Shown here one piece after another: positions 3,814 to 55,600 of a DNA stretch of 64,000 nucleotides (position 1 is the first letter of the stretch; each line of letters starts with the position of its first letter). Source of the DNA: Candidatus Zhuqueibacterota bacterium. Its GTDB lineage: Bacteria; Zhuqueibacterota; Zhuqueibacteria; Thermofontimicrobiales; Thiofontviventaceae. The notes below the pieces were generated by a model. It was not told where the DNA came from, ran no database searches, and saw only the letters and a program-made list of their open reading frames with translations. The stretch covers positions 35,745 through 99,744 of the forward strand of contig JAFGDW010000237.1 in the NCBI GenBank assembly GCA_016931935.1, given 5' to 3'. Both the position numbers and the translations under genes were made by a program.

Positions 3814-5007
3814 ATGGAAAAAATTTACGATATTACTGTCGCTGGTCACATCTGCCTGGATATTATTCCTGAATTTCCTGACACTGGTATACGGGAAATC
3901 AGTGCATTATTCAAACCCGGAAAGTTAATACGAGTCGAAGGCGCAAAAATAAGTACCGGTGGACCTGTATCGAATACAGGTATTGCACTTTCAAAATTAG
4001 GATTAAACGTCGCTTTTATGGCGCGAGTTGGTGATGATTATTTCGGTAAGTTAGTCATTGATTTGCTCAATCGTCAGGGGTATGCGGCAGGGATTTCGAT
4101 TGCCCAAAGTAATCGTACATCATATTCGGTGGCGATTGCGCCTCCGGGGATTGACCGGATTTTTCTACACGATTCCGGTGCTAACGATTTTTTTTCCAGC
4201 GCAAATTTAAATGAAGAAATTATTCATCAATCAAAAATATTCCATTTCGGCTATCCACCGATTATGGCAACATGTTATGAAAATGAAGGGGCAGAACTGT
4301 TTCAAATTTTCAAGATTGCGAAGTCTGCCGGTGTGGTCACGTCATTGGATATGGCGCTACCCGATCCCAACAGTGACAGCGGCAAAACGTCATGGCAGAA
4401 AATTCTGACAAAGGTGCTGCCATACGTTGATATTTTTTTACCGAGTATCGAAGAAGTCTATTTTATGCTTGATCAGCAAAAGTATTTTGAAATAAAAGAA
4501 CAGGCGGGTGATTCCGATATTATCGAATTTATTCATCCCAATGACTATCAGCGATTGGCGCAAAAGTGTTTGGATATGGGATGCAAAATTGTAGCGTTAA
4601 AAACAGCGTACCGTGGCTACTACATATTAACAAATAAAATTACCAGTAATGACATTCCGGTGCTCTCCGATTCTAAAAATTGGTCATACCGGGAACTTTG
4701 GTGTCCGGCGTTCCGGGTAGAACGAATCGCAAGTGCTACAGGATCTGGAGATTCATCAATTGCCGGCTTTTTAGCAGCGTTAGTTAAAGGATATCCTGTT
4801 GAAAAAGTACTGAAGTATGCCAATTGCGTGGGACATCAAAACCTGCATGAACTGGATGCCGTCAGTGGTATTAAAAACTGGGAGGAAACAACAGCCAGCC
4901 TGGAACAAAACAAATTGGAAATGATTGATATGCCGCTGGAAAAATTCGGTTGGCAATTGAACAACGATTTCAAAGTTTGGACAAGTTCGCGAAATAAACA
5001 TTTTTGA
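3814..5007 (+). CDS. PfkB-family carbohydrate kinase (ribokinase/fructokinase-like) with C-terminal extension
   Basis: It carries the N-terminal GG motif region (STGGPVSNTGIAL…) and a C-terminal anion-hole/ATP motif (SATGSGDSSIAGFLAAL). Confidence 0.8.
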   Translation: MEKIYDITVAGHICLDIIPEFPDTGIREISALFKPGKLIRVEGAKISTGGPVSNTGIALSKLGLNVAFMARVGDDYFGKLVIDLLNRQGYAAGISIAQSNRTSYSVAIAPPGIDRIFLHDSGANDFFSSANLNEEIIHQSKIFHFGYPPIMATCYENEGAELFQIFKIAKSAGVVTSLDMALPDPNSDSGKTSWQKILTKVLPYVDIFLPSIEEVYFMLDQQKYFEIKEQAGDSDIIEFIHPNDYQRLAQKCLDMGCKIVALKTAYRGYYILTNKITSNDIPVLSDSKNWSYRELWCPAFRVERIASATGSGDSSIAGFLAALVKGYPVEKVLKYANCVGHQNLHELDAVSGIKNWEETTASLEQNKLEMIDMPLEKFGWQLNNDFKVWTSSRNKHF

Positions 5008-5052: not shown

Positions 5053-5949
5053 ATGGCATTCGGATTGGTACTGATTTTTTTGACTGGCATTTTATGGTGC
5101 GCAAACGGGATTGTTTTGAGTTACATTACCAGAAAGTCGATGGATTTTATTTCATATATCAGTGTTCAGGCAGCATTAAATATGGTAGGAGCATGGTTGT
5201 TCATCGGAGACATTCGGTTAGTAATGTGCGGAAATATTGATCGCTTGGCTCAACTTAATATCCTGATGTTAGGCTCCGGATTTACTGGCATTATTGGTAC
5301 AATTTTCATGCAGAAGGCGATGCGAACCGGGCATCATGGAATTATTTACACCATAGCGCAATCTGCGATGATTATCCCGTTCATCACCGGGGTTGTTTTA
5401 TTTAGCGAACGTTTTCAATTGCTTAACATGATCGGGATGGTATTAGTCGTTGTGAGCATTATGGCATTCGGTATGGAGCGAACAAATTCGAAACAGCAAT
5501 CACACGGCATGACATCAAATGCGTGGTTTTATCTGGCGTTGCTTTCATTGTTGGCTATCGGACTAACACAAACGCTTACAACCGTACCATCTTATTGGAT
5601 AAATTGGAGTGATGAAGCAAATTTACGAGTTCCCCTATTGATGACCGGTTCAGCCCTTGTGTTGTTCATAATTGCGATAATCCAAAAAACACAGTTTACC
5701 AAAAAATCGATCCTGATCGGAACATCATCATCATTCTTTGTTTTGCCTTCGACATTTATATTCTTTAAAGCGATGGATGTACTGGCCCAACACAATAAGG
5801 TTGCGCTTGCTTATCCATTGGCGGTGGGAATAAATATTTTATCGTTTGCCATTTACAGTATGTTCATGATAAAAGAAAAAACAACACTGATGCACATTTT
5901 AGGGATTGTTACCGGATTTACCGGATTGATGTTGATTTCGATTTACTAA
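5053..5949 (+). CDS. Polytopic membrane transporter, DMT/EamA-like (possible sugar uptake protein)
   Basis: There are about 10 predicted hydrophobic helices. I moved the start to the first in-frame ATG; the track start at 5038 is TTG. Confidence 0.45.
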   Translation: MAFGLVLIFLTGILWCANGIVLSYITRKSMDFISYISVQAALNMVGAWLFIGDIRLVMCGNIDRLAQLNILMLGSGFTGIIGTIFMQKAMRTGHHGIIYTIAQSAMIIPFITGVVLFSERFQLLNMIGMVLVVVSIMAFGMERTNSKQQSHGMTSNAWFYLALLSLLAIGLTQTLTTVPSYWINWSDEANLRVPLLMTGSALVLFIIAIIQKTQFTKKSILIGTSSSFFVLPSTFIFFKAMDVLAQHNKVALAYPLAVGINILSFAIYSMFMIKEKTTLMHILGIVTGFTGLMLISIY

Positions 5950-5970
5950 TCGTAGATGAGTGGAAAAAAA

Positions 5971-7570: not shown

Positions 7571-10417
7571 ATGGAAAAAGTTTTTTTCAGCACCCGTTTA
7601 TTGTTCTGCTTCCTTTTTGCACTATCTCAAATTCAAGCGCAAGATAAGCAACCTTTGGATCACAGTGTCTATGATAACTGGAAAAATCTGAATGGCGCCA
7701 GTATTTCCAATAATGGCGAATACGTCTCGTTCGAAATTAATCCCCAGGATGGTGATGGCTGGTTGTATATTAAAAATCTATCCACCCAGAGCAGTGATTC
7801 CATTCGCAGGGGCTACAATGCAGCGTTTTCGCCACAATCGAATTTTATTGTATGTAATATCAAGGCGCCAAAAGACAGTACCCGCAATGCCAAACTTGCA
7901 AAAAAGAAGGATGATCAGCTTCCCAAAGATTCGTTGGGAATATGGTTACTTGAGAAAGATTCGCTGATAAAAGCGGCGAATTTAAAATCATATAAACTTT
8001 CCAAAGATACGTCTCCGTGGTTTGCTTATCATTTGGAAAAACAGGCGGAAAAAAAAGATACAGCAGAAGTTAAGGAAGAAGAAAAAATCAAAAGTGAGAA
8101 AAAGAGAACAGGCAAAAAGAAGGATGATGAAATAAAGACCGGTGATCTTTTTATATGTAATCCTGTCGCATCCAAAAAATATATATTTAATGATGTTTCG
8201 GATTATGCTGTGTCTGAAAATGGCGACCTGATAAGCTTTATTACAGCAAAAAGCGATTCAGTTGATTCCGCGGCGGTCTATGTTTTCAAACCCAGTATTG
8301 AACAGGCTGACAAAATTTTTGAAATGCAGGGACGCGCTAAAAATATTTCCGTTGATAAATTGGGACAGCAAGTCGCTTTTATTTCAACAACAGATACATC
8401 CAAAGCCAAAGTGTACAATTTGCTTTGCTGGATGACGAAATTAAATCAGGCAGAGATGATTATAGATACGCTCACACAAGGCATGCCGGGAAAATGGAGT
8501 GTGAGTGAACATGCCGGGATAACTTTTTCAGACGATTGTTCAAAACTCTATTTCAGAACAGCACCCAAACCGAAACCAGTTCCTAAAGACACGTTAACAG
8601 ATGATGATAAAGTAAAGGTGGATATCTGGAACTGGAAAGATACACGTTTGCAGTCGCAGCAATTAGTCGAGTGTGAAAACGATATGAAACGATCGTATCA
8701 GGCAATTTATCATATTCGGGAAAAAAGAATGGCGCAACTTGGCGATAACGTTGTCCATGACGTGACAATTTTAAAAGATAATCCCCGGATCGCTCTTGGT
8801 ATCGACACTAGGTCGTACGAAAAACTGATTTCCTGGGAATACCCTGAATACAGGGATGCATATGTAATTGATTGTAATAGTGGCGCAAATAAAATTATCC
8901 TTAAAAAGAAACAATTTGGCGTTTCTATTTCTCCATTCGGAAAATATGTGTTGTGGTTTGAAAATGCGGATAGTTTATGGTATGCATATTCCGTAAAAAA
9001 CAATCAGTACATACCTCTTACAAAAAATATCCCGGTTCAATTTTATAATGAGCAGCATGATGAACCTTGTCCGCCAACGCCTTATGGTATTGGCGGATGG
9101 GCAAAGAATGATGAATGTGTCATGATTTATGATCGTTTCGATATCTGGAAAATTGATCCCGAAGGCAGGAAAGCGCCGGTAAATCTCACACGAGCGTATG
9201 GGCGAAACCATAAGATCAGGCTGCGCGTGGTTGATCTGGATAAAGAACAAGAATATTTCGAATTAAAAGAGTCTTTGCTGTTGAGTGGTTTTAATGAAAC
9301 ATCCAAACAAGACGGATTTTATTCAACCCGATTGAGTTCAAAAAATGATCCCGCTATATTAATTGTAAAGGATAATCGGTTTGAACATGTGGTTAAGGCG
9401 AAACAGGCAAATAGACTCATTTGGACAAAAAGTTCGTTTATCGAATATCCTGATTTATGGGAAAGTAATCTGACATTTGAAAATCCTATCAGATTATCTG
9501 ATGCCAATCCGCAGCAACAGCATTATTTGTGGGGAAGTGTGGAGTTAATAAAGTGGAAAGATTATAACGGCAACGAGCTTGAAGGATTGGTGTATAAGCC
9601 GGAAAACTTCAATCCAAACAAAAAGTACCCGATGCTTGTGTATTTTTATGAGCGAAGTTCATTTATCAAATATTGGCATTTTGTTCCAAAGCCATCGCCT
9701 TCGACGATAAATTTTTCTTATTATGTTAGCAATGGCTATGTTGTTTTTGTTCCGGATATTGTTTACGGAACCGGCCACCCCGGCAACGATGCATATAACG
9801 CAGTCGTGAGTGGAACGATGAATTTGCTGAAAAGTGGCTATATTGATGAGAAGAAAATCGGTATACAGGGCCAAAGTTGGGGCGGATACCAGGTTGCATA
9901 TCTGGTCACTCGAACAAATCTGTATGCTGCAGCGATGGCCGGTGCACCGGTGAGTAACATGACCAGCGCTTATGGCGGCATCCGCTGGAAGAGCGGATTG
10001 AGTCGAATGTTTCAGTACGAACAAGACCAAAGCAGGATCGGTGCAAACCTATGGGAACGGCCAGAGCTCTATATTGAAAATTCCCCGGTATTTCATGCCC
10101 CGGAAGTTCAAACACCACTGCTGATTATGCATAATGATAACGATGGCGCTGTCCCCTGGTACCAGGGAATCGAATTATTCGTGGCATTACGTCGACTCAA
10201 TAAGCCAGTGTGGATGCTGACATATAACGGTGATGAGCACAATTTAAAACGGCGCGCCAATCAAAAAGATTTGAGTATTCGTATGCAACAGTTCTTTGAT
10301 CACTACTTAAAATATGCTCCTGCACCCGAGTGGATGGAGAACGGGATACCTGCAGTCGACAAAGGTGAAAAAATGGGATATGATTTGATAGAAGACACTG
10401 GTTTGGGTAGGAAATAA
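7571..10417 (+). CDS. S9 family serine peptidase (prolyl oligopeptidase / dipeptidyl-peptidase-like), secreted
   Basis: It has a signal peptide, an N-terminal beta-propeller-like region and a C-terminal alpha/beta hydrolase with GQSWGGYQ (GxSxGG). Downstream Asp and His motifs are NDNDGAVPW and DEHNL. Confidence 0.85.
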   Translation: MEKVFFSTRLLFCFLFALSQIQAQDKQPLDHSVYDNWKNLNGASISNNGEYVSFEINPQDGDGWLYIKNLSTQSSDSIRRGYNAAFSPQSNFIVCNIKAPKDSTRNAKLAKKKDDQLPKDSLGIWLLEKDSLIKAANLKSYKLSKDTSPWFAYHLEKQAEKKDTAEVKEEEKIKSEKKRTGKKKDDEIKTGDLFICNPVASKKYIFNDVSDYAVSENGDLISFITAKSDSVDSAAVYVFKPSIEQADKIFEMQGRAKNISVDKLGQQVAFISTTDTSKAKVYNLLCWMTKLNQAEMIIDTLTQGMPGKWSVSEHAGITFSDDCSKLYFRTAPKPKPVPKDTLTDDDKVKVDIWNWKDTRLQSQQLVECENDMKRSYQAIYHIREKRMAQLGDNVVHDVTILKDNPRIALGIDTRSYEKLISWEYPEYRDAYVIDCNSGANKIILKKKQFGVSISPFGKYVLWFENADSLWYAYSVKNNQYIPLTKNIPVQFYNEQHDEPCPPTPYGIGGWAKNDECVMIYDRFDIWKIDPEGRKAPVNLTRAYGRNHKIRLRVVDLDKEQEYFELKESLLLSGFNETSKQDGFYSTRLSSKNDPAILIVKDNRFEHVVKAKQANRLIWTKSSFIEYPDLWESNLTFENPIRLSDANPQQQHYLWGSVELIKWKDYNGNELEGLVYKPENFNPNKKYPMLVYFYERSSFIKYWHFVPKPSPSTINFSYYVSNGYVVFVPDIVYGTGHPGNDAYNAVVSGTMNLLKSGYIDEKKIGIQGQSWGGYQVAYLVTRTNLYAAAMAGAPVSNMTSAYGGIRWKSGLSRMFQYEQDQSRIGANLWERPELYIENSPVFHAPEVQTPLLIMHNDNDGAVPWYQGIELFVALRRLNKPVWMLTYNGDEHNLKRRANQKDLSIRMQQFFDHYLKYAPAPEWMENGIPAVDKGEKMGYDLIEDTGLGRK

Positions 10418-10580: not shown

Positions 10581-11525
10581 ATGAGTAGCACAGCTTTAAT
10601 TTTTCACATCCAGCGATTTTCAATCCATGATGGTCCGGGAATTCGGACGACGGTTTTTTTTAAAGGTTGTTCATTAAGTTGTTTTTGGTGTCATAATCCG
10701 GAAGGCCGGCATGCTTATTCAGAAATTCAATTCGTCGCCTCCAATTGCATTGGCTGTGGTGAATGTGTCTACGTATGTGAGCATCATGCTCATCAGCTAA
10801 AAGATGGTGAACGATTTTACAGCCGTGCTCTCTGTGTAAATTGTGGTAAATGCGCCCAAAATTGTTTCTCCGGAACGCTTGAATTAATCGGCAAGCGAAT
10901 GACCGTGAAGCAGGTGATGGATGAAATACTCCGGGATAGCGCATTTTATGAATCATCGAATGGTGGTATTACGTTATCGGGTGGCGAGCCCTGTTTAAAA
11001 AGTGTATTCATCAGAACGCTGTTGGAACAATGTAAACAACAGAACATACATACAGCGCTTGAAACGTGTGGCAATTACAAATGGGATAAATTAAATTCAT
11101 TACTGCCGTTTACGGATTTGGTTATGATGGATATTAAATTAATGAATCCGGACAAGCACAAACAGGTGACCGGCGATTCTAACAAACGGATCATTACCAA
11201 TGCCCGACAACTGGTATTAACCGATAAACCGATTATTTTCCGCACGCCCATTGTCCCAACGGTTAATGACACGATTGAGGAATTTAGTGAGATTGTTGAC
11301 TTCATTGAAGAATTAATCGAATTACGCCTGAAACGGGGCAAAGCTTCAACAAATGATGCGAATATTCAACTGGAATTGCTGCCGTTTCATCAACTGGCAT
11401 CGGATAAGTACAAACATTTGGGACAGGACTACAAGGCAGCGCAACTGATCCCGCCGGCCAGTGAAAAGATGCATGAACTGGCTGAAATTGCTAAAAAGCA
11501 CGCAATTGATGTGAAAGTAAGGTGA
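10581..11525 (+). CDS. Glycyl-radical enzyme activating enzyme (radical SAM) with inserted two-cluster ferredoxin-like domain
   Basis: It has HDGPGIRTTVFFKGCSLSCFWCHNPE (CX3CX2C radical SAM) plus CIGCGECVYVCEHHA and CVNCGKCAQNC. This insertion is characteristic of non-PFL-type activases. Confidence 0.9.
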   Translation: MSSTALIFHIQRFSIHDGPGIRTTVFFKGCSLSCFWCHNPEGRHAYSEIQFVASNCIGCGECVYVCEHHAHQLKDGERFYSRALCVNCGKCAQNCFSGTLELIGKRMTVKQVMDEILRDSAFYESSNGGITLSGGEPCLKSVFIRTLLEQCKQQNIHTALETCGNYKWDKLNSLLPFTDLVMMDIKLMNPDKHKQVTGDSNKRIITNARQLVLTDKPIIFRTPIVPTVNDTIEEFSEIVDFIEELIELRLKRGKASTNDANIQLELLPFHQLASDKYKHLGQDYKAAQLIPPASEKMHELAEIAKKHAIDVKVR

Positions 11526-11544
11526 TCGTGAATTTGCTAAGACC

Positions 11545-11577
11545 ACCGATGCTATCGCTCGAAGCGCTGGCATCGGT
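11545..11577 (+). other. Branched hairpin with outer stem ACCGATGC/GCATCGGT enclosing a CGCTcgaAGCG mini-palindrome, between activase and GRE genes
   Basis: I read it directly from the sequence. The outer stem is identical to that of the hairpin at 15762-15796. Confidence 0.45.
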
Positions 11578-11618
11578 ACCTGGAAGCAAATAAACTTTAT
11601 TCATCTTAAAAATGAGAA

Positions 11619-13853
11619 ATGACTATGGAAAACAATACATACACATACCAACAGCGCATCGATGCACTACGCGCCACGAAACTGAAACATACGCAGGAAA
11701 AATGGGATTATATCGGAGTGTTAGATTATGACGATTACGCGCTCATCCTTCCCCCGGTTGAATATAGAGAGAAAAAGCATTTGGTCAGCGCCTCCGGCCT
11801 GGAAATAACAGATGTGTTGTATACGAAATTTGTACCGAAAACGAACCATCCCGGCGGTGGATTTTTTGGCGCGCGCATCTGTGGCGAGAATTTTGGAAAG
11901 ATGCTGGAAATACATCCTGTTTATATTGATCCCTTCAGTTCGTTAGCCGGATCATTTATGATGATTTTGCTATCATATCGCGATCCGTATTGGAATCCTG
12001 ATTTCAACTTTTCTCATTTGGAAAACGAACATAAAAAATATAAAATTACATTGCATGGAATTGGAGCAGCTCAACATTTTTGCCATGATATGACAATCGG
12101 TTTTGAACTTGGCTGGAAAGGCATTCTCGACAAGATTCGCCATTATCGCACACTAAACACCGATGAAGAGGCAACCGAATTATACGATGGCCTGGAAGAT
12201 ATAGTATCGGGATTCCAAAACTGGATCGGACGCCATGCTGTTGCAGCCCGGGAAATGGCGGCCGCGGAAAAGAATCGGTTACTAAAACAAAATCTGTTGG
12301 AGATTGCTGAAATTAACGAGAAGCTGGTTTCCGAACCCCCAACCACATTTCGGGAAGCCTGCCAATGGATGCTGTGGTACCAGATAGCAGGCAAAATGTA
12401 TAACGCAGGCGGCTCGCTTGGCAGAATCGATCAGTTTCTGCTTCCATTCTATGAACGCGATATTACTGCCGGAATCCTTACGGATGAAGAAGCTATTTTT
12501 CATATCGCGTGTCATTTCATTCATGATACAAGTTACATTCAACTGGGCGGGCCCGATGAAAACGGACATGATGCTACAAATAAATTGTCCTATCTTGTGC
12601 TTGAAGCTGCGCACCGGTTAAAAATTCCCATGAATGTAGGTGTCTGTGTCGGAGAGAAACTGGATACTCAATTGTTAAGGCGTGGTGTTGAAATTTTGTT
12701 TGAGGACAAAACCGGGATTCCAAAATTTCTTGGTATTGATGTAACAAGCAAGGATTTTACGAAAAACGGTTATCCGATTGAATTGGGACGAGACCGTGTA
12801 TATTGCGGCTGCAACTGGCATGCAATACCCGGACGGGAATATACAATGAATGATTGTGTTAAACTAAACCTTGGCGTCGTTTTTGAAGTTGCCTTCTATG
12901 ACATGATGGATGATAAGAATACCCATCCATCCGTCGCTGAATTATGGAAACGCTACGAATACCATATGTCGCGCGCTGTTGATATTATTGCGCAGAGTAT
13001 GGATTTTCATCTCGATCACATGTTTCAAGTATTCCCGGAACTCCATCTGGATTTGTTATGTCACGGCCCAATTGAAAGAGGGCGAGATGCATCACATGGC
13101 GGTGTTGAATTTTATAATCTGGGTTTGGATGCCGCAGGGCTGGCCACTGTCGCTGATTCATTTGCTGCGCTTGAGCAGCGTATCGAAATTGAAAAGCGTT
13201 TGACCTGGCAGGAATTAACGGATTACTTGAAGTCGGATTGGGCGGGCACCGATGGCGAGCGCGCCCGGCTAATGATGAAGAAAGCGCCTAAATTTGGCAG
13301 CGGCGGCAGTCTGGCCGATGATTACGCAATACGGGTATCACGTTTATTTACGAATTATGTCATCGAACATCCGACACCCAAAGGTTTCAAAATTCTTCCG
13401 GGTATCTTTTCGTGGGCGCTCACGGTTCAATTGGGAAAAGATGTAGGCGCAACACCCAATGGACGTCACGCCTACGCTTCAATTACACACGGCCCGAATC
13501 CCGAGCCTGGCTTTCGCAAAGATAGCGCGCCATCCGCATTGGCAGTGGCGGTCGCAAAAGTGCAACCAGGCTACGGCAACACTGCCCCAATGCAAATCGA
13601 ATTGGATCCCGGCCTTTCCAGAGATGAAGAAAACATTGAAAAATTAATGAGTCTGATAAAAACCCATTTCGAGTTGGGTGGCACACAAATTAATATGAAT
13701 ATTTTGGACAAGCAGAAAATAGTGGAAGCGCATGAAGATCCATCTCGACATCCGGATTTAGTGGTGCGTGTTACAGGATTCAGCGCCTATTTTGCCAGCC
13801 TGTCACCGGAACTGAGGCAGGTGGTGGTGGACAGGATAGTAACAAGTGAGTAA
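11619..13853 (+). CDS. Glycyl radical enzyme (PFL-fold), divergent; non-canonical Cys loop
   Basis: It carries the C-terminal glycyl radical motif RVTGFSAYF. It also has ATPNGR and REACQWMLWYQ…GGSLGRIDQF motifs that align with PFL landmarks. The Cys loop reads VYCGCNWH where PFL has CC and eliminases have GC[VI]E. Confidence 0.85.
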   Translation: MTMENNTYTYQQRIDALRATKLKHTQEKWDYIGVLDYDDYALILPPVEYREKKHLVSASGLEITDVLYTKFVPKTNHPGGGFFGARICGENFGKMLEIHPVYIDPFSSLAGSFMMILLSYRDPYWNPDFNFSHLENEHKKYKITLHGIGAAQHFCHDMTIGFELGWKGILDKIRHYRTLNTDEEATELYDGLEDIVSGFQNWIGRHAVAAREMAAAEKNRLLKQNLLEIAEINEKLVSEPPTTFREACQWMLWYQIAGKMYNAGGSLGRIDQFLLPFYERDITAGILTDEEAIFHIACHFIHDTSYIQLGGPDENGHDATNKLSYLVLEAAHRLKIPMNVGVCVGEKLDTQLLRRGVEILFEDKTGIPKFLGIDVTSKDFTKNGYPIELGRDRVYCGCNWHAIPGREYTMNDCVKLNLGVVFEVAFYDMMDDKNTHPSVAELWKRYEYHMSRAVDIIAQSMDFHLDHMFQVFPELHLDLLCHGPIERGRDASHGGVEFYNLGLDAAGLATVADSFAALEQRIEIEKRLTWQELTDYLKSDWAGTDGERARLMMKKAPKFGSGGSLADDYAIRVSRLFTNYVIEHPTPKGFKILPGIFSWALTVQLGKDVGATPNGRHAYASITHGPNPEPGFRKDSAPSALAVAVAKVQPGYGNTAPMQIELDPGLSRDEENIEKLMSLIKTHFELGGTQINMNILDKQKIVEAHEDPSRHPDLVVRVTGFSAYFASLSPELRQVVVDRIVTSE

Positions 13854-15837: not shown

Positions 15838-16518
15838 ATGAACCGTTCGGAGATTAATCAGCTTCAACGGGAAGCTGTGGAATTTTTCAAACAACAAAAA
15901 TTTTATCTCCCCCACTGGCTCTATTGGCAAAAACACGATTGGTTGAAAAATAAAAAAAATACAACGGAAATTATCGAGAATAAACTTGGCTGGGATTTAA
16001 CGGATTTTGGTTCAGGATATTTTTATCAACAAGGTTTACTTTTAATCACATTGCGAAACGGAAAACCGGGCGTTAAATCCGGGAAAAATTATGCTGAAAA
16101 AATAATGATTGTCCGTGAGAATCAGGTAACGCCCTGGCATTTTCATTGGAGTAAAATGGAAGACATTATCAATCGCGGCGGCGGTAATCTGGTGATCGAA
16201 TTGTGCAATTCAACAGCAGATGAAACACTTGCGGATACTCAAGTTTCCGTGCAGATTGATGGCATTACTCACACTGTTGATGCGTATGGTACAATTGTGC
16301 TTAAACCGGGTGAAAGCATTACATTTCCGTCGTATTTATATCATCAGTTTTATGGCGAAACCGGCAAGGGTCAGGTGCTTGTTGGTGAAGTATCCCAGGT
16401 GAATGATGATGAACGTGATAATCGTTTTCTAAATCCGGTTGGACGATTTCCTGAAATAATTGAAGACGAAGCGCCATTGTACTACTTGTGCAATGAATAT
16501 CCGGTATCGACAGTTTAA
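15838..16518 (+). CDS. Cupin-type D-lyxose/D-mannose ketol-isomerase (YdaE-like)
   Basis: It is about 226 aa. The cupin core contains …VTPWHFHWSKMEDIINRGGG…YHQFYGE…, resembling the D-lyxose isomerase family. Confidence 0.55.
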   Translation: MNRSEINQLQREAVEFFKQQKFYLPHWLYWQKHDWLKNKKNTTEIIENKLGWDLTDFGSGYFYQQGLLLITLRNGKPGVKSGKNYAEKIMIVRENQVTPWHFHWSKMEDIINRGGGNLVIELCNSTADETLADTQVSVQIDGITHTVDAYGTIVLKPGESITFPSYLYHQFYGETGKGQVLVGEVSQVNDDERDNRFLNPVGRFPEIIEDEAPLYYLCNEYPVSTV

Positions 16519-16539: not shown

Positions 16540-17158
16540 CCGTCACGACAGGTCGCGGACGATTTATATTTCGGTTTTGCCACCGGATGGGAAGATATTT
16601 GTTGCAAAAACGAACCGTTGGTTCCCATGGATTTTTTCAAGAGTGTGGTCGTACCGCGTTATAGACGAATTCGTGTCCGTCCCGAAATGGTTCGAAATCA
16701 TCTTGATTGCAAGTTAAATATTTAAATTATATAAGAAAGTATGACAAGCTGGAAGCTTATCGTACTTTACCGGACAGACACGAATTAGCATGAAACTTCA
16801 CACTGCCGGAATTGACAAATGGTATACCGGTTGCAATTGCGATGTCCGGCTGCTGTTGCCGCATTTCCTGGAAGCCGGTATTAATTGCCTGTTTCCGCAT
16901 GAAGTCAATAGTTGTATTCATCCCGCGCAGTTGCTAAATGAATACGGCAAAGACCTGAGAATAATGGGGGGTTTCGATAAATTGGAAATGATTAAGGGCA
17001 AAGAAGCGATTTAAAAATACATGGAAAGCCTGGCGCCATTGGTCGAGTGTGGGGGATATATTCCATTTTGCAACCACCGGTGCCCGCCGGATGTAAAGCC
17101 GGAGAATTTTTTGTATTATCTGAATTTGAAAGAGCAGATGTTCGGGGTAAAAATGTAA
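16540..17158 (+). pseudogene. Decayed third URO-D/MtaA-like paralog (N-terminal third missing, in-frame stops)
   Basis: Pieces in one frame (16460-16717, 16790-17014, 17021-17158) align with the C-terminal two-thirds of the 2-661 and 2785-3801 paralogs (…NRWFPWIFSRV… / …GGYIPFCNHRCPPDVKPENF…). They are interrupted by TAA at 16718 and 17012, and by TGA. Confidence 0.55.
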
Positions 17159-17203
17159 TTTTTAATAATGGATAACAAAATTACGGTCACCAAAGGAGAA
17201 TAA

Positions 17204-17980
17204 GTGAATATCAACACCGGAAAAACGATTCGGTTGAGCGATTTTATTCATCCAAAGGATAAACGCTGTTTAATGGTAGATACAACAATCACATCTACGC
17301 TGGGCGCAATCACAGGATTGGAAGATTTCGGTACTGTACTGAAAAGTATTAATGAGTTGGTGGATGGAATAATAATTAATCCGGGACAACTTGAACATCA
17401 GGCGGAGCAACTCGGCGGCAAACGTCGCGCAACTCCGATTGTGCGCGTCGACTGGACGAATGCCTATCGTCACAACGATTTCTGCCTGCCCGTTTCTAAT
17501 GTGAAACGATTGATGATTTCAAACGGCGATGACGCATTCCAGCTTGGCGCTTCTGCAGTAATCGCCAGTCTACTGCTGGGATTTAACGACGAGTTCGAAG
17601 CCAATAATATCAAGGAGCTTTCGCTATTGGCCAGAGAATGTCATCCGATTTCCATGCCTGTTATCATCGATATTCGCCCGATTGGTCCCAAAGTATCACT
17701 CGGTAATTTTAGTGAAAGTATTAAACTGGGAGTGTCGTTCATGCTGGAGCTTGGCGCTGATGCCTTAATTATTCCCACCTGCGATTCGGAGACATATCAA
17801 ACAATTGCCCGGTGGATAAGTGTGCCTGTACTGCTCAGACTAAACGAATTTCCGCCCGAAAGTAACATGAAGCAAATGTTTGACGCCGGTGTTGCCGGGA
17901 TCGTTTTAGCGGAAGATATTTTTGCTGTATCCGATTATGCACAAAAAATTGAAAATCTGAAAACAATCATACATCAGTAA
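17204..17980 (+). CDS. DhnA-type class I aldolase paralog (archaeal FBA / ADH-synthase / LsrF family), apparently lacking the Schiff-base lysine
   Basis: It has a GTG start with AAGGAG 8 nt upstream. It aligns along its length with the N-terminal domain of the next gene. It has …DTTITS… where the paralog has AADHG, and GADALIIPT where the paralog has GADALKIPY. Confidence 0.65.
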   Translation: MNINTGKTIRLSDFIHPKDKRCLMVDTTITSTLGAITGLEDFGTVLKSINELVDGIIINPGQLEHQAEQLGGKRRATPIVRVDWTNAYRHNDFCLPVSNVKRLMISNGDDAFQLGASAVIASLLLGFNDEFEANNIKELSLLARECHPISMPVIIDIRPIGPKVSLGNFSESIKLGVSFMLELGADALIIPTCDSETYQTIARWISVPVLLRLNEFPPESNMKQMFDAGVAGIVLAEDIFAVSDYAQKIENLKTIIHQ

Positions 17981-17989
17981 AGGAATACA

Positions 17990-19276
17990 ATGTCAGTATC
18001 AGCAGGTAAATCAGTCAGATTAAATCGGTTATTCAATCCGAAAGATGGCAAAGCTGTATGTGTGGCAGCAGATCATGGCTGGATGTCCGACCCGACTGCA
18101 AATGTCATGGAACTGGAGAGCATTTTACATAAAGTCGTGCAAGGTGGCGCGGATGGTATTCTCATCAGCTTCGGCACAGCGCTGCGGCTTGGCCACATTA
18201 TACAGGGGAAAAATTCACCGGCCATGTTGATCCGTGCCGATTGGATGAATTTGCCACGGTTAGGCGGCGCCAATGTTAGCAATATCCTGCCGGTTGTTAA
18301 TTTTAAAAAAATGGCAACTTCGTTTGCCAAAGATGCGCTGTTGGTTGGCGCATCGGCAATTACTATTTATTACTTTATTGGCTATAATGATGAATTTGAA
18401 ACCATAAATATAGAACAATCTGCAATGTTTGCCCGCGAATGCCGCAAAATTGGCTTGCCGTTAATCATAGAGCCGATGGCAATCGGTGGCATGGTTTCCG
18501 GTGTCAACATTGCTGAAATCTTGATTGCTTCAGCGCGTATTGCGGTGGAAATTGGCGCCGATGCCTTAAAGATACCCTACACCGGTGATGTCAAAACGTT
18601 CAAACTGTTAGTAGATCAATCGAGAGTCCCTGTGTTAGTTCTCGGTGGTGCAAAATCGGATGTGCCGCGCGATGCACTGGAACTGGTGGATGAAGCGTTG
18701 CAGGCAGGCGCTAGCGGCACTGTCTTCGGACGCAATGTCACCAAGGCCACAGATCCGCAAAAGATGGTTGCCGACCTGTGTGCTTTGGTTCATGAAAATA
18801 AATCGCTCGATGAAATTTTTGGAGAAACAAGCAAATCAGGTTACCGGCTGAAAGCCATTCCTGAAAATTGTACCGGCTGCCAATTATGTGAAATTGTCTG
18901 TACACAATTCCATGAAAAAAACTATGGCATAAAAAGCGCGCGAATTAAAATCCACGCAAAAGGAAGTGAACCGGCTTTCAAACCATCCGTTTGTACACTT
19001 TGCGGGAAATGTGTCAACGCATGTGAACCGGGCGCGCTGACAATAGGAGATAAAGGCTATCTTGTGCTTGATAAATCACGTTGCAACGGCTGCGCCCATT
19101 GTATGGTAGCCTGTCCGTTTGGCGTTATTACCATGAATGCGGAAACGAATACACCAATCTTTTGTGATTTGTGTTTGGGCGATCCGCAATGTGTAAAATG
19201 GTGCAAACGTGATGCGTTAACGTTGGTGAAACGAAAAGAAAATGATGTAGCTAACAAGCTTGGGAATGAGAATTAA
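17990..19276 (+). CDS. DhnA-type class I aldolase fused to C-terminal four-[4Fe-4S] ferredoxin domain (AorA/YdhY-like)
   Basis: The N-terminal domain has GKSVRLNRLFNPKDGKAV…AADHG…GADALKIPYTG…GGAKSD…GRNV. The C-terminal 150 aa carry CTGCQLCEIVC, CTLCGKCVNAC, CNGCAHCMVAC and CDLCLGDPQCVKWC. Confidence 0.8.
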   Translation: MSVSAGKSVRLNRLFNPKDGKAVCVAADHGWMSDPTANVMELESILHKVVQGGADGILISFGTALRLGHIIQGKNSPAMLIRADWMNLPRLGGANVSNILPVVNFKKMATSFAKDALLVGASAITIYYFIGYNDEFETINIEQSAMFARECRKIGLPLIIEPMAIGGMVSGVNIAEILIASARIAVEIGADALKIPYTGDVKTFKLLVDQSRVPVLVLGGAKSDVPRDALELVDEALQAGASGTVFGRNVTKATDPQKMVADLCALVHENKSLDEIFGETSKSGYRLKAIPENCTGCQLCEIVCTQFHEKNYGIKSARIKIHAKGSEPAFKPSVCTLCGKCVNACEPGALTIGDKGYLVLDKSRCNGCAHCMVACPFGVITMNAETNTPIFCDLCLGDPQCVKWCKRDALTLVKRKENDVANKLGNEN

Positions 19277-19370
19277 ATAACACCGTCTGTGTTCATGAAT
19301 ATCTCTTAATTATGATAACGTTACATAGGCCTGGCCGTGTGTTGATTATTAGTGAGCTTAAACTTTGTTT

Positions 19371-19417
19371 GACATCCCCCTGAATCCGCCTTTGAAAGGG
19401 CGGCAAAGGGGGATGTC
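19371..19417 (+). promoter_or_regulatory. Long bulged hairpin GACATCCCCC…GGGGGATGTC with inner CCGCCTTT-gaa-AGGGCGG stem, in the 226-bp spacer before AOR
   Basis: I read it directly from the sequence. There is no flanking U-tract on either strand. Confidence 0.35.
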
Positions 19418-19502
19418 AAAAGTTGAACAAGTTATTTAATTCAGAAATTTAAATAATTCATCATCAAAGATACTCTCTCTACAATTATAAGGAGCAACTT
19501 GC

Positions 19503-24500: not shown

Positions 24501-25553
24501 ATGCACATATACGGTCGAAACTGGAAACGGCGTGAGCTTGAAGCGCGTGTTGGTAAAATAGAAACGATTGGTGGCGTTCGCAGATTCAGGATTGAAGATG
24601 GTCCCGAACATGGCGTGGAATTGATCCAGGTACGCAACGGCGCAGGGTTAACCTATTATTTGAACGCGTCCCGGGCGTTGGATATTTCACTGGCCGAGTA
24701 TCGAGGTGTTCCGCTTAGCTGGCATTCGGTTAATGGCGATGTCCACCCGGCATACTACAATCCCGATGGTACGGAATGGTCGCGAACCGCCGCCGGTGGC
24801 TTGTTGATGACCTGTGGGTTGACGCAGGTTGGTTCGCCATGTCAAGATGGTGAAGATAAGTTGGGGATTCATGGCAGAATTCATCATACACCGACGCGGG
24901 ATGTTTCAGCATACGGTTTTTGGGATGGCGACGACTATCATATGCAAATACGCGGAATAATGCAGGAATCCAGAATCTTTGCTGAAAATATGCAATTAAC
25001 GCGGGAGATCAAAACCCGGTTGGGCGAAAATAAAATTGTAATTCACGATACGGTTGAAAATATCGGATTTCAAACTACACCCTTCATGATATTATACCAT
25101 TTCAATTTTGGCTTCCCGCTTATGACCGAAAATACAATAATCGAATTCCCGTCGCATCAAGTTATTCCACGCGATCAGCATATTCCGGTCGACGGATTTG
25201 ATCGATGGCAAACACCGGAAGTGAACTATCAGGAACGGGTATATTATCATCAAATCGATCAGGCAAAAGTAAACGACAATTTGGCAACGGTTTATATTCG
25301 AAATTCCAGCTTCCCAATTGAGGCTGGAAATGGTAAAATACCTGTAACCGTACGTCTGGCTTGGAATATCGATAACCTGCCAAATCTGATTCAATGGAAA
25401 ATGCCTGCTGCCGGTGTGTACGCCTTGGGAATTGAACCGGCAAACTGTCATGTTGAAGGCCGTGTTGCAGAGCGTAATAATAAAACATTGATTATGCTTG
25501 AGCCGGGTGAAAGTAAGCATTATTATTTGGAGTTGGAAATTGTTGAAGAATAG
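24501..25553 (+). CDS. DUF4432-like / aldose-1-epimerase (galactose-mutarotase fold) family protein
   Basis: It is about 350 aa with a beta-rich composition. …GIHGRIHHTPTRDV… is reminiscent of the mutarotase family. The assignment is tentative. Confidence 0.35.
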   Translation: MHIYGRNWKRRELEARVGKIETIGGVRRFRIEDGPEHGVELIQVRNGAGLTYYLNASRALDISLAEYRGVPLSWHSVNGDVHPAYYNPDGTEWSRTAAGGLLMTCGLTQVGSPCQDGEDKLGIHGRIHHTPTRDVSAYGFWDGDDYHMQIRGIMQESRIFAENMQLTREIKTRLGENKIVIHDTVENIGFQTTPFMILYHFNFGFPLMTENTIIEFPSHQVIPRDQHIPVDGFDRWQTPEVNYQERVYYHQIDQAKVNDNLATVYIRNSSFPIEAGNGKIPVTVRLAWNIDNLPNLIQWKMPAAGVYALGIEPANCHVEGRVAERNNKTLIMLEPGESKHYYLELEIVEE

Positions 25554-52636: not shown

Positions 52637-52661
52637 TGATTTGAATCAGCGGAGAATAAAA

Positions 52662-55600
52662 ATGAAATATCGCTTCTTATTTATAGCTTTAATGCTGTGT
52701 TTTATAATTAATCCGGCTTTCGGACAAGCGCCAGTAATCAGCAATATCTCAGTGCAGCAACGAGGCGGAGAAGATATCGTCGACATTTCCTATGATTTAT
52801 CTGCGTCATCGGAGATAATTGTCCGAGTCTCGATTTTTAATGACAATGAGGATATAAACGCAAATAGTATTACCGGTAACGGGAAAGGCTTCGTTTCGCC
52901 AGGTGAAGAAAAAACGTTGGTATGGAATGCAGGCGAAGATTTTCCAAATCAATATAGTGAAGAAATGACAGTAAAATTTGAAGCAATTGATGTGGATTAT
53001 AATGTCGTTTTCACTAGTGAACTGTTCACAGTTGATACACGTGTGAATAAGCCGCCGGTAGATGGTTGGCAAACAATTTCCAATAATGGAAATACCTTTA
53101 ATGAACAAATACTTATAGATAATAAAGGGAAAATTTGGTGCTTCTATCTAAAATCGACTGGCACTCGCCCCGATTACTGCCTGAAAGTGCTTGATGAAGA
53201 AGGATATATTTATAAAACCGAACGCGTTGTTGCTCATGGATCGGCGCTTGTTACAGGCAAACATCAGACAATTCGGGCTGCAGTAAACAAATTGACAGGC
53301 AATGTATGGGCAGTATTTCAGGGAAGCCATGCTGAAAATCAAACCGGCTTTTTTGTGATTTTTAATGATACAGCGGGAATTAAGCAGGATTCAACGGCAC
53401 TTACTTCAACCACAGATGCAGTAAACGCTCCGAAAGTCGCCGCTGCTCTCAATGGTGACATGTGGTTTAGTTGGCATGGTGGTATTCCTCGAACTGCCAA
53501 TGCAATCGGTGAATATATTCGCTATACCAACTATGGCGAACCAGTGGGATCCACGAGCACTTTTCTGAATGATGCTGATAACGGATTGTTCAATACTGAC
53601 ATTGCCGTCGATAAAAACAATCGCATTTGGTTGCTTGTTGAACGTTCCGAAGATGATTATAAATCACAGTATTATATTTCCAATACTGAAAAAGTGATTA
53701 TCAGCTCCGGAGATATCTCATCCGATAATTTTTATTTTGATCCTCGAATGTCAATCTATGCTGATACATATAACGATCGGATTTGGGTTCTGCAAAAGAA
53801 TATTGACTCCACCTACTATCGAATAAATGGCTATTATTTAGTCGATGAAGCTGTGAACACGACCACCCCGATTTTATCGACGGGTATTTGTTCCTTTATA
53901 ATGAATGAAAACAGAAATCTTGAAGTTGTACGATATAATCCAACGAATCAACGATACCAATTTCGCGAATATAATGGAACTACGGGAGCCATTATCGGAA
54001 TTGATCAGTGGCAAACTCTGTTTTCAGGATTACCTAATCCCGGGCCAGTAGATAATTATGTTGCTTATAACGAGAAGTACTCAACGCGGAAAGTATATCT
54101 GGCTCATACAGACACTGAATTACTTAAAGTAAAACTAAAAGATGCTGTCCTTCGAACTGCCGCAATCGCTGCAATTCCGGATACGATCCGATTTGGTAGT
54201 GTCGGAACTGATACTATCAAGACATCAACATTTCGTATTAAAAATATTGGCACCGAGATAGTTAATATTCAAAATATTTCATCTTCAAACGCACGCTTCA
54301 CCGTAAATAAAACAGAAATAGAATTGAATCCAGGTGATTCGACAACCGTTACTGTAACATTCTCGCCAAATGCAGTCGGGGATATAAGTGGTATAATCAC
54401 AATTACAAGTAATGCGGATAGCGGAACTGAAACAGTATATGCTACCGGTTCCGGATACATTCGTACCTGGTCTCTCACGACAAATCCCACCGCTTTGAAT
54501 TTCGGGGAAGTATCCACAATCTCTGTTAAACGGGATTCATTCTATGTGCGAAATATTGGGAATCAGCGATTAACAATCACAAATATTACATCCAGCAATG
54601 ATCGCTTCACGATTCTGCAACAGGATCGAAATTTCTCGTTAAGCGTAGGCGATTCTCATATTGTCCGCATTGATTTCACTCCGAACGCTGAATCAATTTT
54701 CAACGGAACAGCTAATATTTACAGCAATGCCGGCGTGGAACCGCATCAAGTAAGTTTAACCGGCCGTGGATACGTTTATACTGCCGCTAATTTTTTCCTT
54801 GAACCGACCTCCATTGATTTTGATAGTGTTCTGGTTGGTGAATCCAGTACAGATTCTTTCATTGTAAAAAATACAGGCAATCTGAAACTCGAAGTACGAA
54901 GTGTTGTTTCTAATGACGCACGATTTGCTGTTTTAAAAGAAGATTCTGTATTTAATGTCAGCCCGGGTGATTCACATACCGTGGAAATTGTTTTTACGCC
55001 GACTTCAACCAAAACGTATGAGGGCACGATCACATTTATAAATAATGATCCGGAAACCCCGGAAATATTCGCAACAGTTACAGGACGGGGTTTTTCATAT
55101 GGAACGCCACATATCGTTGTAAGTAAGCAATCGGTGACATTTCAAGATGTGATTGTCGGTCAATCAGATACTAATTTTGTAGACATAATAAATACTGGAA
55201 CCAATGTACTTAAAATAGAGAGCATATCACTAAAGGATTCCTTCTATATAGCCTACTTTGATACTGCAAAATGGGGCACAAAACCAGAATTACACCCAAA
55301 CGATAGTGAAAAACCATTTATGAGAGTTAACGTTATTTTTACTCCAACACGTTTGGGAGATATGGATGCTACATTATATATCCTAAGCAATGATCCGGAG
55401 TTTCCACAAAAATCAATTTCAGTTGTCGGTTCTTCAAGGAATGCAGCACCTCCTGAAATATCTCTTCCACCATCGCTTGCATTTGAAAATGCCATTGTCA
55501 GCCGTAAATATTCGACACAATTTTATATGGGTAATACAGGTGAACAAAATTTAATGATTTCAGGCTATCGTTTAAATTCTTCACAATTTAGTTTAAGCGG

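Follow-up and report, generated by a model that had tools for sequence, protein, structure and literature searches.

The 64,000-nucleotide window analysed here, from contig JAFGDW010000237.1 of a Candidatus Zhuqueibacterota bacterium, carries on its forward strand a three-gene cassette in which two tandem paralogs of the DhnA-type class I aldolases precede an aldehyde:ferredoxin oxidoreductase (AOR) of the tungsten type (Table 1). The upstream paralog, open reading frame (ORF) 17204–17980, lacks the Schiff-base lysine of the family and is referred to below as the pseudo-aldolase. The downstream gene, 17990–19276, encodes a 428-residue fusion of an active-type aldolase domain with a polyferredoxin domain, and the third gene encodes the AOR. 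The two aldolase ORFs are in the same frame, separated by 9 nt, and homologs of the pseudo-aldolase share its start position (MNIN/VNIN...). These homologs fall into 110 clusters of 38–66% identity to it, spread over at least seven phyla, and NCBI lists an identical protein, annotated as hypothetical, under a candidate division KSB1 bacterium.

Table 1. Features of the pseudo-aldolase cassette, in window coordinates
Feature	Position	Strand	Remarks
Shine–Dalgarno-like GGAG	17195..17198	+	ends 5 nt ahead of GTG
Lys-less DhnA-type paralog (pseudo-aldolase)	17204..17980	+	258 aa, GTG start
R81-x-D83-W84-T-N86-x-x-R89...L95-P96, start of β3–α3 loop	17444..17491	+	predicted intra-ring interface, by LsrF homology
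Codon ATT, Ile189, at the Schiff-base Lys position on strand β6	17768..17770	+	alignment to solved structures
Active-type DhnA aldolase domain of the fusion, residues 1–277	17990..18820	+	AADHG, K194, LGG, FGRN invariant
Codon AAG, Lys194, predicted Schiff-base Lys of the active paralog	18569..18571	+	
WorS/AorA-like polyferredoxin domain, 4 x CxxCxxCxxxC and a short C-terminal helix	18842..19276	+	16 invariant Cys
WorL-type tungsten aldehyde:ferredoxin oxidoreductase, 602 aa	19503..21311	+	PF02730 2e-74, PF01314 6.5e-125

Fold and catalytic residues of the pseudo-aldolase

Residues 1–258 of the pseudo-aldolase align by BLASTP with residues 1–269 of the fusion at 31% identity (E = 4e-36), bearing out the end-to-end relationship proposed in a first-pass annotation of the window. 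The shared strings quoted there are all present (RLSDFIHPKDKRCL and RLNRLFNPKDGKAV, GFNDEFE and GYNDEFE, ARECHPISMPVIID and ARECRKIGLPLIIE), as is the pairing of ELGADALIIPT in the upstream protein with EIGADALKIPYTG in its downstream paralog. Against the PF01791 (DeoC/LacD) profile, which has a cut-off of 23.8 bits, the pseudo-aldolase barely passes with 24.3 bits, compared with 75.6 bits for the downstream protein, which also matches 4Fe-4S domains. Its NCBIfam scores, 79 bits for PRK07226 (cut-off 241) and 63.5 bits for TIGR01949 (cut-off 299), fall short; the ADH-synthase/DhnA subfamily is nearest to both paralogs, each of which lies under every curated cut-off. The AlphaFold2 (AF2) model, computed with 108 homologs, is a (β/α)8 barrel with a predicted local distance difference test score (pLDDT) of 94.5 and a predicted template-modelling score (pTM) of 0.92. 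Foldseek matches this model to MJ0400 (2qji) with a template-modelling score (TM) of 0.84–0.85, to LsrF with 0.79–0.80 and to fructose-bisphosphate aldolase of T. tenax (TtFBPA) with 0.76–0.79.

In an alignment to the solved structures, the Schiff-base lysine (K184 of MJ0400, in GADIVKTSY, equivalent to K203 of LsrF, and the lysine of TtFBPA in GADAMKIKY) falls on Ile189 of the pseudo-aldolase, in GADALIIPT, whereas the downstream paralog has K194 in GADALKIPY; the replacement of this lysine had been claimed in the first-pass annotation and is upheld. The sequence DTTITS stands in place of AADHG, as was also stated there. In the MAFFT alignment, Thr28-Ile29-Thr30 lie opposite Asp28-His29-Gly30 of the live paralog, which include the general-base Asp and the His that contacts phosphate, strand β1 comprising residues 22–26 in both AF2 models. 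The near-invariant Asp26 thus sits two residues before the catalytic Asp column, and an Asp is placed under an Asp only in the pairwise BLAST alignment, through a 2-residue gap. The catalytic loss is wider than had been listed, as the phosphate-binding GG of β7 has given way to a 3-residue deletion and RLN, and the G-R-N of β8, which belongs to the same phosphate site, to AED. The Tyr proton donor of TtFBPA and MJ0400 is missing in both paralogs. Because the family varies at this residue (Glu, Tyr or Asp), and Glu161, close to the missing Tyr, is invariant in the fusion, this absence is no sign of inactivity.

The same losses were followed in 35 further loci, collected by exact-protein look-ups of homologs of the ORF, by look-ups of homologs of the fusion and by a one-genome-per-species scan, and originating from KSB1, Bacteroidota/Ignavibacteriota, Zhuqueibacterota, Aminicenantes, Chloroflexota, Planctomycetota and one archaeon. 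None of the 27 unique locus sequences, nor of 4 further loci, has a lysine at the β6 position; in every locus this column of the upstream paralog holds I, V, L, A or S, and GG and GRN are gone as well. When 1.84 billion representative proteins were searched with a profile, 635 matches were obtained; the best 150 were taken, and 126 of these were long enough to align. Among those 126, 49 full-length proteins, representatives at 50% identity, lack the lysine (A15, I13, V8, S5, L4, F2, C1, G1) and 62 have it. Retention of the remaining active-site residues, in MJ0400 numbering, differs sharply between Lys-less and Lys-containing representatives: D33 is kept in 11/45 versus 52/62, H34 in 3/45 versus 56/62, G209 in 0/45 versus 61/62, G210 in 1/45 versus 59/62 and R238 in 7/45 versus 59/62. 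The remnants of the old site differ by lineage (P0253, for example, keeps DHG and GR), and this patchiness is typical of relaxed decay in a protein that has lost its function.

A relocated Schiff-base lysine is unlikely, the only candidates being K7, which lies in α0 and is also present in active relatives, and K174, in the middle of helix α5, which is less than 80% conserved across the full Lys-less family. With lysine never found at β6 in any of the Lys-less sequences examined, and with the phosphate site also lost, the suggestion of a catalytically inactive paralog is well founded, and the product of ORF 17204–17980 is, on sequence grounds, very probably dead for Schiff-base aldol chemistry. 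Many of its Lys-less homologs (P0002, P0013, P0021 and others) are labelled by JGI as 'DhnA family fructose-bisphosphate aldolase class Ia' and by NCBI as hypothetical. The JGI label is likely to be a misannotation, through which metabolic reconstructions of KSB1, Ignavibacteriota, Aminicenantes and comparable groups may count a dead enzyme as a fructose-bisphosphate aldolase and inflate glycolysis calls.

Selection, gene order and the downstream partners

The ratio of nonsynonymous to synonymous substitution rates (dN/dS) of the pseudo-aldolase, measured in closely related genome pairs, is 0.06–0.17; in these pairs the live aldolase domain has a ratio of 0.02–0.07. Mean pairwise identity is 0.44 for the Lys-less paralog and 0.70 for the live domain, and the columns that are at least 95% conserved number 27 and 95, respectively. 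In a neighbour-joining analysis with Poisson distances, 295 of 300 bootstraps unite the Lys-less proteins, the archaeal copy included, in a single clade; the phylogeny indicates that one old duplication of a DhnA aldolase lies behind all of them.

The GTG start, the loss of every catalytic motif and the NCBI designation 'hypothetical protein' could be taken as marks of a recent, functionless duplicate, either a decaying pseudogene or an ORF that is never translated. The ORF is, however, intact and preceded by a ribosome-binding site, its N terminus is conserved, its fold is predicted with confidence, its homologs form more than 100 clusters at 45–66% identity and reach at least 7 phyla, and it evolves at the low dN/dS given above. 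Decay is excluded because dN/dS is low, homologs are many and the 49 representatives are all without the lysine, the clade is single and the synteny is constant; the probability left to a decaying or untranslated ORF is negligible, and that reading is refuted. Of the two states that the first-pass annotation had asked to be told apart, a stable pseudo-enzyme and recent decay, the dN/dS, the single clade and the synteny, invariant across phyla, establish the former.

The Lys-less gene lies directly upstream of the fusion in each of the 36 sources, the window and 35 loci, with the AOR gene next wherever the contig extends far enough. The seven loci that were picked through the fusion, and not through the Lys-less gene, all carry the Lys-less gene upstream as well. 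The gap between pseudo-aldolase and fusion is between −20 and +15 nt in 26 of the 32 tabulated sources, and four later loci have an overlap of −4 or −1 nt, or a 16-nt gap, at this junction. A promoter and terminator scan of the window, in which counts were near the shuffled expectation, placed no terminator-like site between the two genes. The flanking genes are otherwise unrelated from locus to locus and include tricarboxylic acid cycle genes, peptidases, POR/PTA/ACK and others.

The full cassette is also present on an archaeal contig, in a metagenome-assembled genome (MAG) labelled 'Nitrososphaerota archaeon' (L031, 5203–9077). Its Lys-less paralog retains SHG, PYAG and GR and groups with the bacterial Lys-less clade, a position that suggests that the whole module passed between the domains when the lysine had already been lost.

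The fusions of all loci keep AADHG, the lysine, LGG and FGRN without exception. Their aldolase domains are unusually well conserved, being 76–84% identical among the KSB1/Bacteroidota-type, Zhuqueibacterota and Aminicenantes loci and 45–64% identical in deeper lineages; in the same loci the AOR (56–67%) and the ferredoxin domain (44–59%) both fall below the aldolase domain. The polyferredoxin domain finds its best matches in the Protein Data Bank in 9mqx_E (WorS of A. mobile WorABCSL), 8c0z_C (AorA) and 6x6u_B (WOR5-S). The AOR scores 441 bits against 1aor (P. furiosus AOR), 437 bits against 9mqx_D (A. mobile WorL) and 390 bits against 8c0z_A (A. aromaticum AorB), and matches the WorL of clade-87-type AORs (PMC12318220, PMC13328260). 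A glycolytic reading of the pair, as GAPOR and fructose-1,6-bisphosphate (FBP) aldolase, was tried. The AOR is not GAPOR-like, giving only a weak partial match of 49.5 bits to a model with a cut-off of 1300, and the aldolase of the fusion lies under the cut-offs for both class I FBP aldolase and ADH synthase; this reading is neither supported nor excluded.

The junction between fusion and AOR is looser than that between the paralogs. Outside the window, most loci show the two genes overlapping or separated by fewer than 75 nt, and inserts of 537–1357 nt separate them in L003/L004/L021, L020, L027 and L016; the occurrence of such inserts in several genomes means that this junction tolerates insertions and the pseudo-aldolase–fusion junction does not. 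The insert of L003 encodes an 81-residue protein of the 23S_rRNA_IVP family. The 816-nt insert of L016 is perhaps an artefact, as the AOR match is there in two pieces, the first of which starts at 8055 and overlaps the end of the fusion. In the window, the 226 nt between the two genes (19277–19502) contain a nested perfect stem-loop at 19371–19417 (GACATCCCCCT...AGGGGGATGTC) with an inner CCGCCC...GGGCGG stem. This stem-loop has a folding z-score of −3.5, occurs once in the window, has no T-run behind the stem and may act as an element for processing or stability, or else represent a small inserted repeat. In an Anaerolineae MAG (L007, 8281–10130) the AOR is broken over several frames, with tblastn pieces 8312–8569, 8560–9534, 9533–9607 and 9603–10106, either through a fault in assembly or because the cassette is decaying; the other two genes of this locus, for pseudo-aldolase and fusion, are intact.

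Conserved surfaces and the putative complex

LsrF is a D5 decamer, the same assembly as in TtFBPA and MJ0400 (PMC2728841). Within its rings, α1a, α2, α3 and the large β3–α3 loop of one subunit pack on α4–α6 of the next, and the rings stack through α0 and the loops after α2 and α3 (PMC2728841). Mapped by homology onto the AF2 secondary structure of the pseudo-aldolase, these interface elements comprise 110 of its 258 residues, and of the 49 positions conserved in the Lys-less paralog they hold 30 (Fisher p = 0.003). None of the 49 falls in α1, α7, α8a or α8, and in the C-terminal third, which provides the phosphate site in active enzymes, P208 and G232 are the sole conserved positions. The R-x-D-W-x-N-x-x-R...L-P motif at the start of the β3–α3 loop is common to both paralogs and is also found in stand-alone Lys-containing relatives, and is therefore a subfamily trait. 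In the monomer model of the fusion, confidence within the barrel is low at the β3–α3 loop alone (pLDDT 51–69), as would be expected of a segment that is ordered by a neighbouring subunit. By analogy with LsrF, the distribution of conserved positions supports the retention of oligomerisation surfaces in the Lys-less paralog.

Among 72 Lys-less sequences, 25 positions are at least 80% conserved, and all save Leu175 match the residue of the Lys-containing relatives; no family-specific polar residue is conserved universally in this set. The residues E64, H65, R158, R212 and E237 are striking in the KSB1/Bacteroidota group and variable in deeper lineages.

These patterns bear on whether the barrel has been neo-functionalised, its old pocket binding a ligand or catalysing another step of the pathway, such as an isomerisation or epimerisation, or holding the aldehyde or acid product at a regulatory or hand-over site. 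Such a role would agree with the near-invariant polar residues at the C-terminal ends of strands in the KSB1/Bacteroidota-type proteins (D26, N59, Q62, E64, H65, R81, D83, W84, N86, R89, D156, R158 and E237), with the presence of the R-x-D-W-x-N-x-x-R motif in the live paralog and with the low dN/dS; it also has a precedent, as some GatZ-family 'accessory' proteins later turned out to be epimerases. However, E64, H65, R158, R212 and E237 vary in Chloroflexota, Planctomycetota and archaeal copies and in the 45 representatives, and the shared motif of the β3 loop is also an interface element in LsrF. The sparsely conserved C-terminal third, moreover, makes up half of the pocket in active enzymes. 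The new, non-Schiff-base function offered as a second option in the first-pass annotation is the less likely branch, since no new polar residue is universal across the Lys-less family, and a neo-functionalised barrel of either kind, ligand-binding or catalytic, is considered unlikely.

The explanation preferred here, with moderate confidence, is that the pseudo-aldolase is a structural subunit of a hetero-oligomeric aldolase–WorS–WorL complex. Its translational coupling to the fusion, their co-occurrence and the conservation of interface elements indirectly suggest that the two proteins probably heteromerise. The pseudo-aldolase would have arisen when a DhnA-type class I aldolase gene underwent an ancient duplication, keeping the TIM barrel and the oligomerisation surfaces; it would be made together with the live fusion and would most likely assemble with it into a mixed DhnA-type ring or stack, onto which the WorS domain of the fusion would dock WorL, the tungsten AOR that the third gene encodes. 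The live aldolase is predicted to split a ketose 1-phosphate into dihydroxyacetone phosphate (DHAP) and an unphosphorylated hydroxy-aldehyde, for which glycolaldehyde, lactaldehyde and glyceraldehyde are candidates. WorL would oxidise the released aldehyde at once, and by homology the electrons would leave through the fused polyferredoxin to ferredoxin. The dead subunit would contribute assembly, stability or spacing, and no chemistry.

Several considerations weigh against a structural role of this kind. The interfaces were mapped by homology to LsrF, which is only about 20% identical, and the enrichment of conserved positions in them is moderate. In addition, Asp26, Asn59, Gln62, Arg81, Asp83, Trp84, Asn86 and Asp156 lie at the C-terminal ends of strands. 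These ends form the canonical ligand face of a TIM barrel, so that a binding pocket may be retained in the pseudo-aldolase. A pentameric ring cannot alternate two types of subunit, and long-branch attraction among fast-evolving sequences could inflate the Lys-less clade.

The obligate co-occurrence and translational coupling would also fit a transient assembly or maturation factor, that is, a chaperone-like stabiliser or folding helper of the fusion, or a loader of WorL, that is not a stoichiometric subunit. The pseudo-aldolase also evolves faster than all three catalytic modules, and tungsten oxidoreductase (WOR) operons carry non-subunit helpers such as WorX, as described in the 2026 WOR classification (PMC13328260). 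Yet a full barrel, both sides of the ring interface and the α0 stacking element have been kept, which is beyond the need of a transient helper, and the overlap of stop and start codons speaks for synthesis in equal amounts. A passing helper role is accordingly rated as quite improbable, and the structural subunit is retained as the preferred reading.

As a bolder and more tentative extension of the structural-subunit reading, possible but not favoured, the cassette may represent a new architectural class of tungsten oxidoreductase. In such an enzyme the ring of live and dead aldolases would replace the 'nanowire' formed through the C-terminal helix of WorS and would hold several WorS–WorL units, giving a metabolon that cleaves a ketose 1-phosphate and hands the free hydroxy-aldehyde directly to tungsten. 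If true, this would amount to a ferredoxin-linked shortcut in sugar catabolism, present in many uncultured anaerobic phyla, and the complex would depend on the dead subunit for its geometry.

Genomic context and comparison with known systems

Genes around the cassette give some hints of its metabolic setting. A DUF4432 protein is encoded a few kilobases downstream in the window (24501–25553) and in seven other distinct loci, L001 (12790–13851), L010, L011, L015, L028, L032 and L035, whose proteins, where matched over their full length, are 39–59% identical to that of the window. A PfkB sugar kinase gene stands beside DUF4432 in L032 and L035, and PfkB is also found at 3814–5007 of the window; the recurrence of these families hints that the cassette is part of a sugar-catabolic route. 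The live aldolase appears to keep the single phosphate site that is used for DHAP, and AORs of this type are expected to oxidise unphosphorylated aldehydes. Together with the sugar-related neighbours, these properties fit the cleavage of a ketose 1-phosphate followed by oxidation of the aldehyde.

Just upstream of the cassette, the window encodes a cupin of the D-lyxose/D-mannose-isomerase type (15838–16518; PF07385, 307 bits), and L032 (2518–3123) and L019 (~5600–5950) have a weaker relative at the corresponding position. Other loci have different upstream neighbours: a GlcD-like FAD oxidase gene in L008 (4881–6257), its stop overlapping the start of the pseudo-aldolase gene, the lactate racemase LarA directly upstream in L034 (1807–3078), and, directly upstream in L009 (1–6201), a four-subunit 2-oxoacid:ferredoxin oxidoreductase, PTA and two acetate/butyrate kinases. 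The neighbours in L008, L034 and L009 suggest the fate of an acid product or the direction of carbon flow.

Directly upstream of the cassette in the window, 16790–17157 contains an apparent C-terminal gene remnant of about 120 codons with an in-frame TAA at 17012–17014. No N-terminal part was found and a Pfam search gave no match; the remnant is possibly a rearrangement scar beside the cassette. Farther upstream, 10581–13853 encodes a glycyl-radical enzyme (PFL-like and Gly_radical, 744 aa) and a radical-SAM activase (314 aa), which precede two ABC sugar-permease genes and show no synteny with the cassette in other genomes. A very large ORF of 3120 aa with a TTG start spans 52641–62003.

The Lys-less proteins define a sizeable, phylum-spanning family of class I pseudo-aldolases. 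They offer a natural example of how a homo-oligomeric ring enzyme would turn hetero-oligomeric once it is duplicated and one copy is inactivated, with the ancestral live copy adjoining for comparison. The cassette is, in turn, a testable candidate for physical coupling of C–C cleavage to ferredoxin-dependent aldehyde oxidation, and the widespread, undescribed aldolase–tungsten module as a whole is a more valuable lead than the pseudo-subunit alone. Neither an aldolase-fused WorS nor a Lys-less DhnA paralog was described in full-text literature searches or, on targeted reading, in a 2025 review of tungsten enzymes. In the 2026 WOR classification, the word aldolase does not occur in the text, and the stored supplement lists no DeoC-type neighbour (PMC13328260).

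Compared with the DhnA-type aldolases MJ0400 ADH synthase (2qjg), T. tenax FBPA (1ojx) and E. coli LsrF (3gkf), the pseudo-aldolase has the same TIM barrel (TM 0.76–0.85) and shares the α0 'GKxxR' helix, the E-x-G-A-D before β6 and the large β3–α3 loop. Unlike them, it has no Schiff-base lysine, DHG or GG/GRN phosphate site, and it never occurs alone, being found in every source upstream of a live paralog.

The redox half of the cassette resembles the Class II WORs, which consist of WorL and WorS (P. furiosus WOR5/ASOR, 6x6u, and C. bescii GOR), as it contains a WorL and a WorS/AorA-like domain; judged by homology, it is formally a Class II WOR in the 2026 scheme (PMC13328260). Unlike in those enzymes, its WorS is a domain fused to an aldolase, with a dead aldolase paralog encoded beside it, and the combination of an aldolase::WorS fusion with WorL is not covered by the current five-class scheme. 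The cassette also shares WorS/AorA homology and four [4Fe-4S] clusters with the nanowire-forming AorAB and WorSL (8c0z, 9mqx). The C-terminal helix of WorS/AorA drives nanowire assembly, whereas its counterpart in the cassette is short, poorly conserved and predicted with low confidence.

DmpG and DmpF form a channelling complex of 4-hydroxy-2-oxovalerate aldolase and acylating acetaldehyde dehydrogenase. There, too, an aldolase is physically coupled to an aldehyde-oxidising enzyme and the reactive aldehyde is not released, a channelling that the cassette would share as a counterpart based on tungsten and ferredoxin. DmpFG differs in pairing a class II pyruvate aldolase with an NAD/CoA dehydrogenase, and has no tungsten, ferredoxin or pseudo-subunit. 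For a dead aldolase partner, the best functional analogy is probably provided by GatZ and KbaZ, which accompany the class II tagatose-1,6-bisphosphate aldolases GatY and KbaY as non-catalytic subunits. These proteins are aldolase-related, have no activity of their own, are encoded beside the catalytic subunit and are needed for its stability or full activity. They belong to metal-dependent class II enzymes of an unrelated family with no link to a redox enzyme, whereas the cassette described here encodes a pair of class I paralogs.

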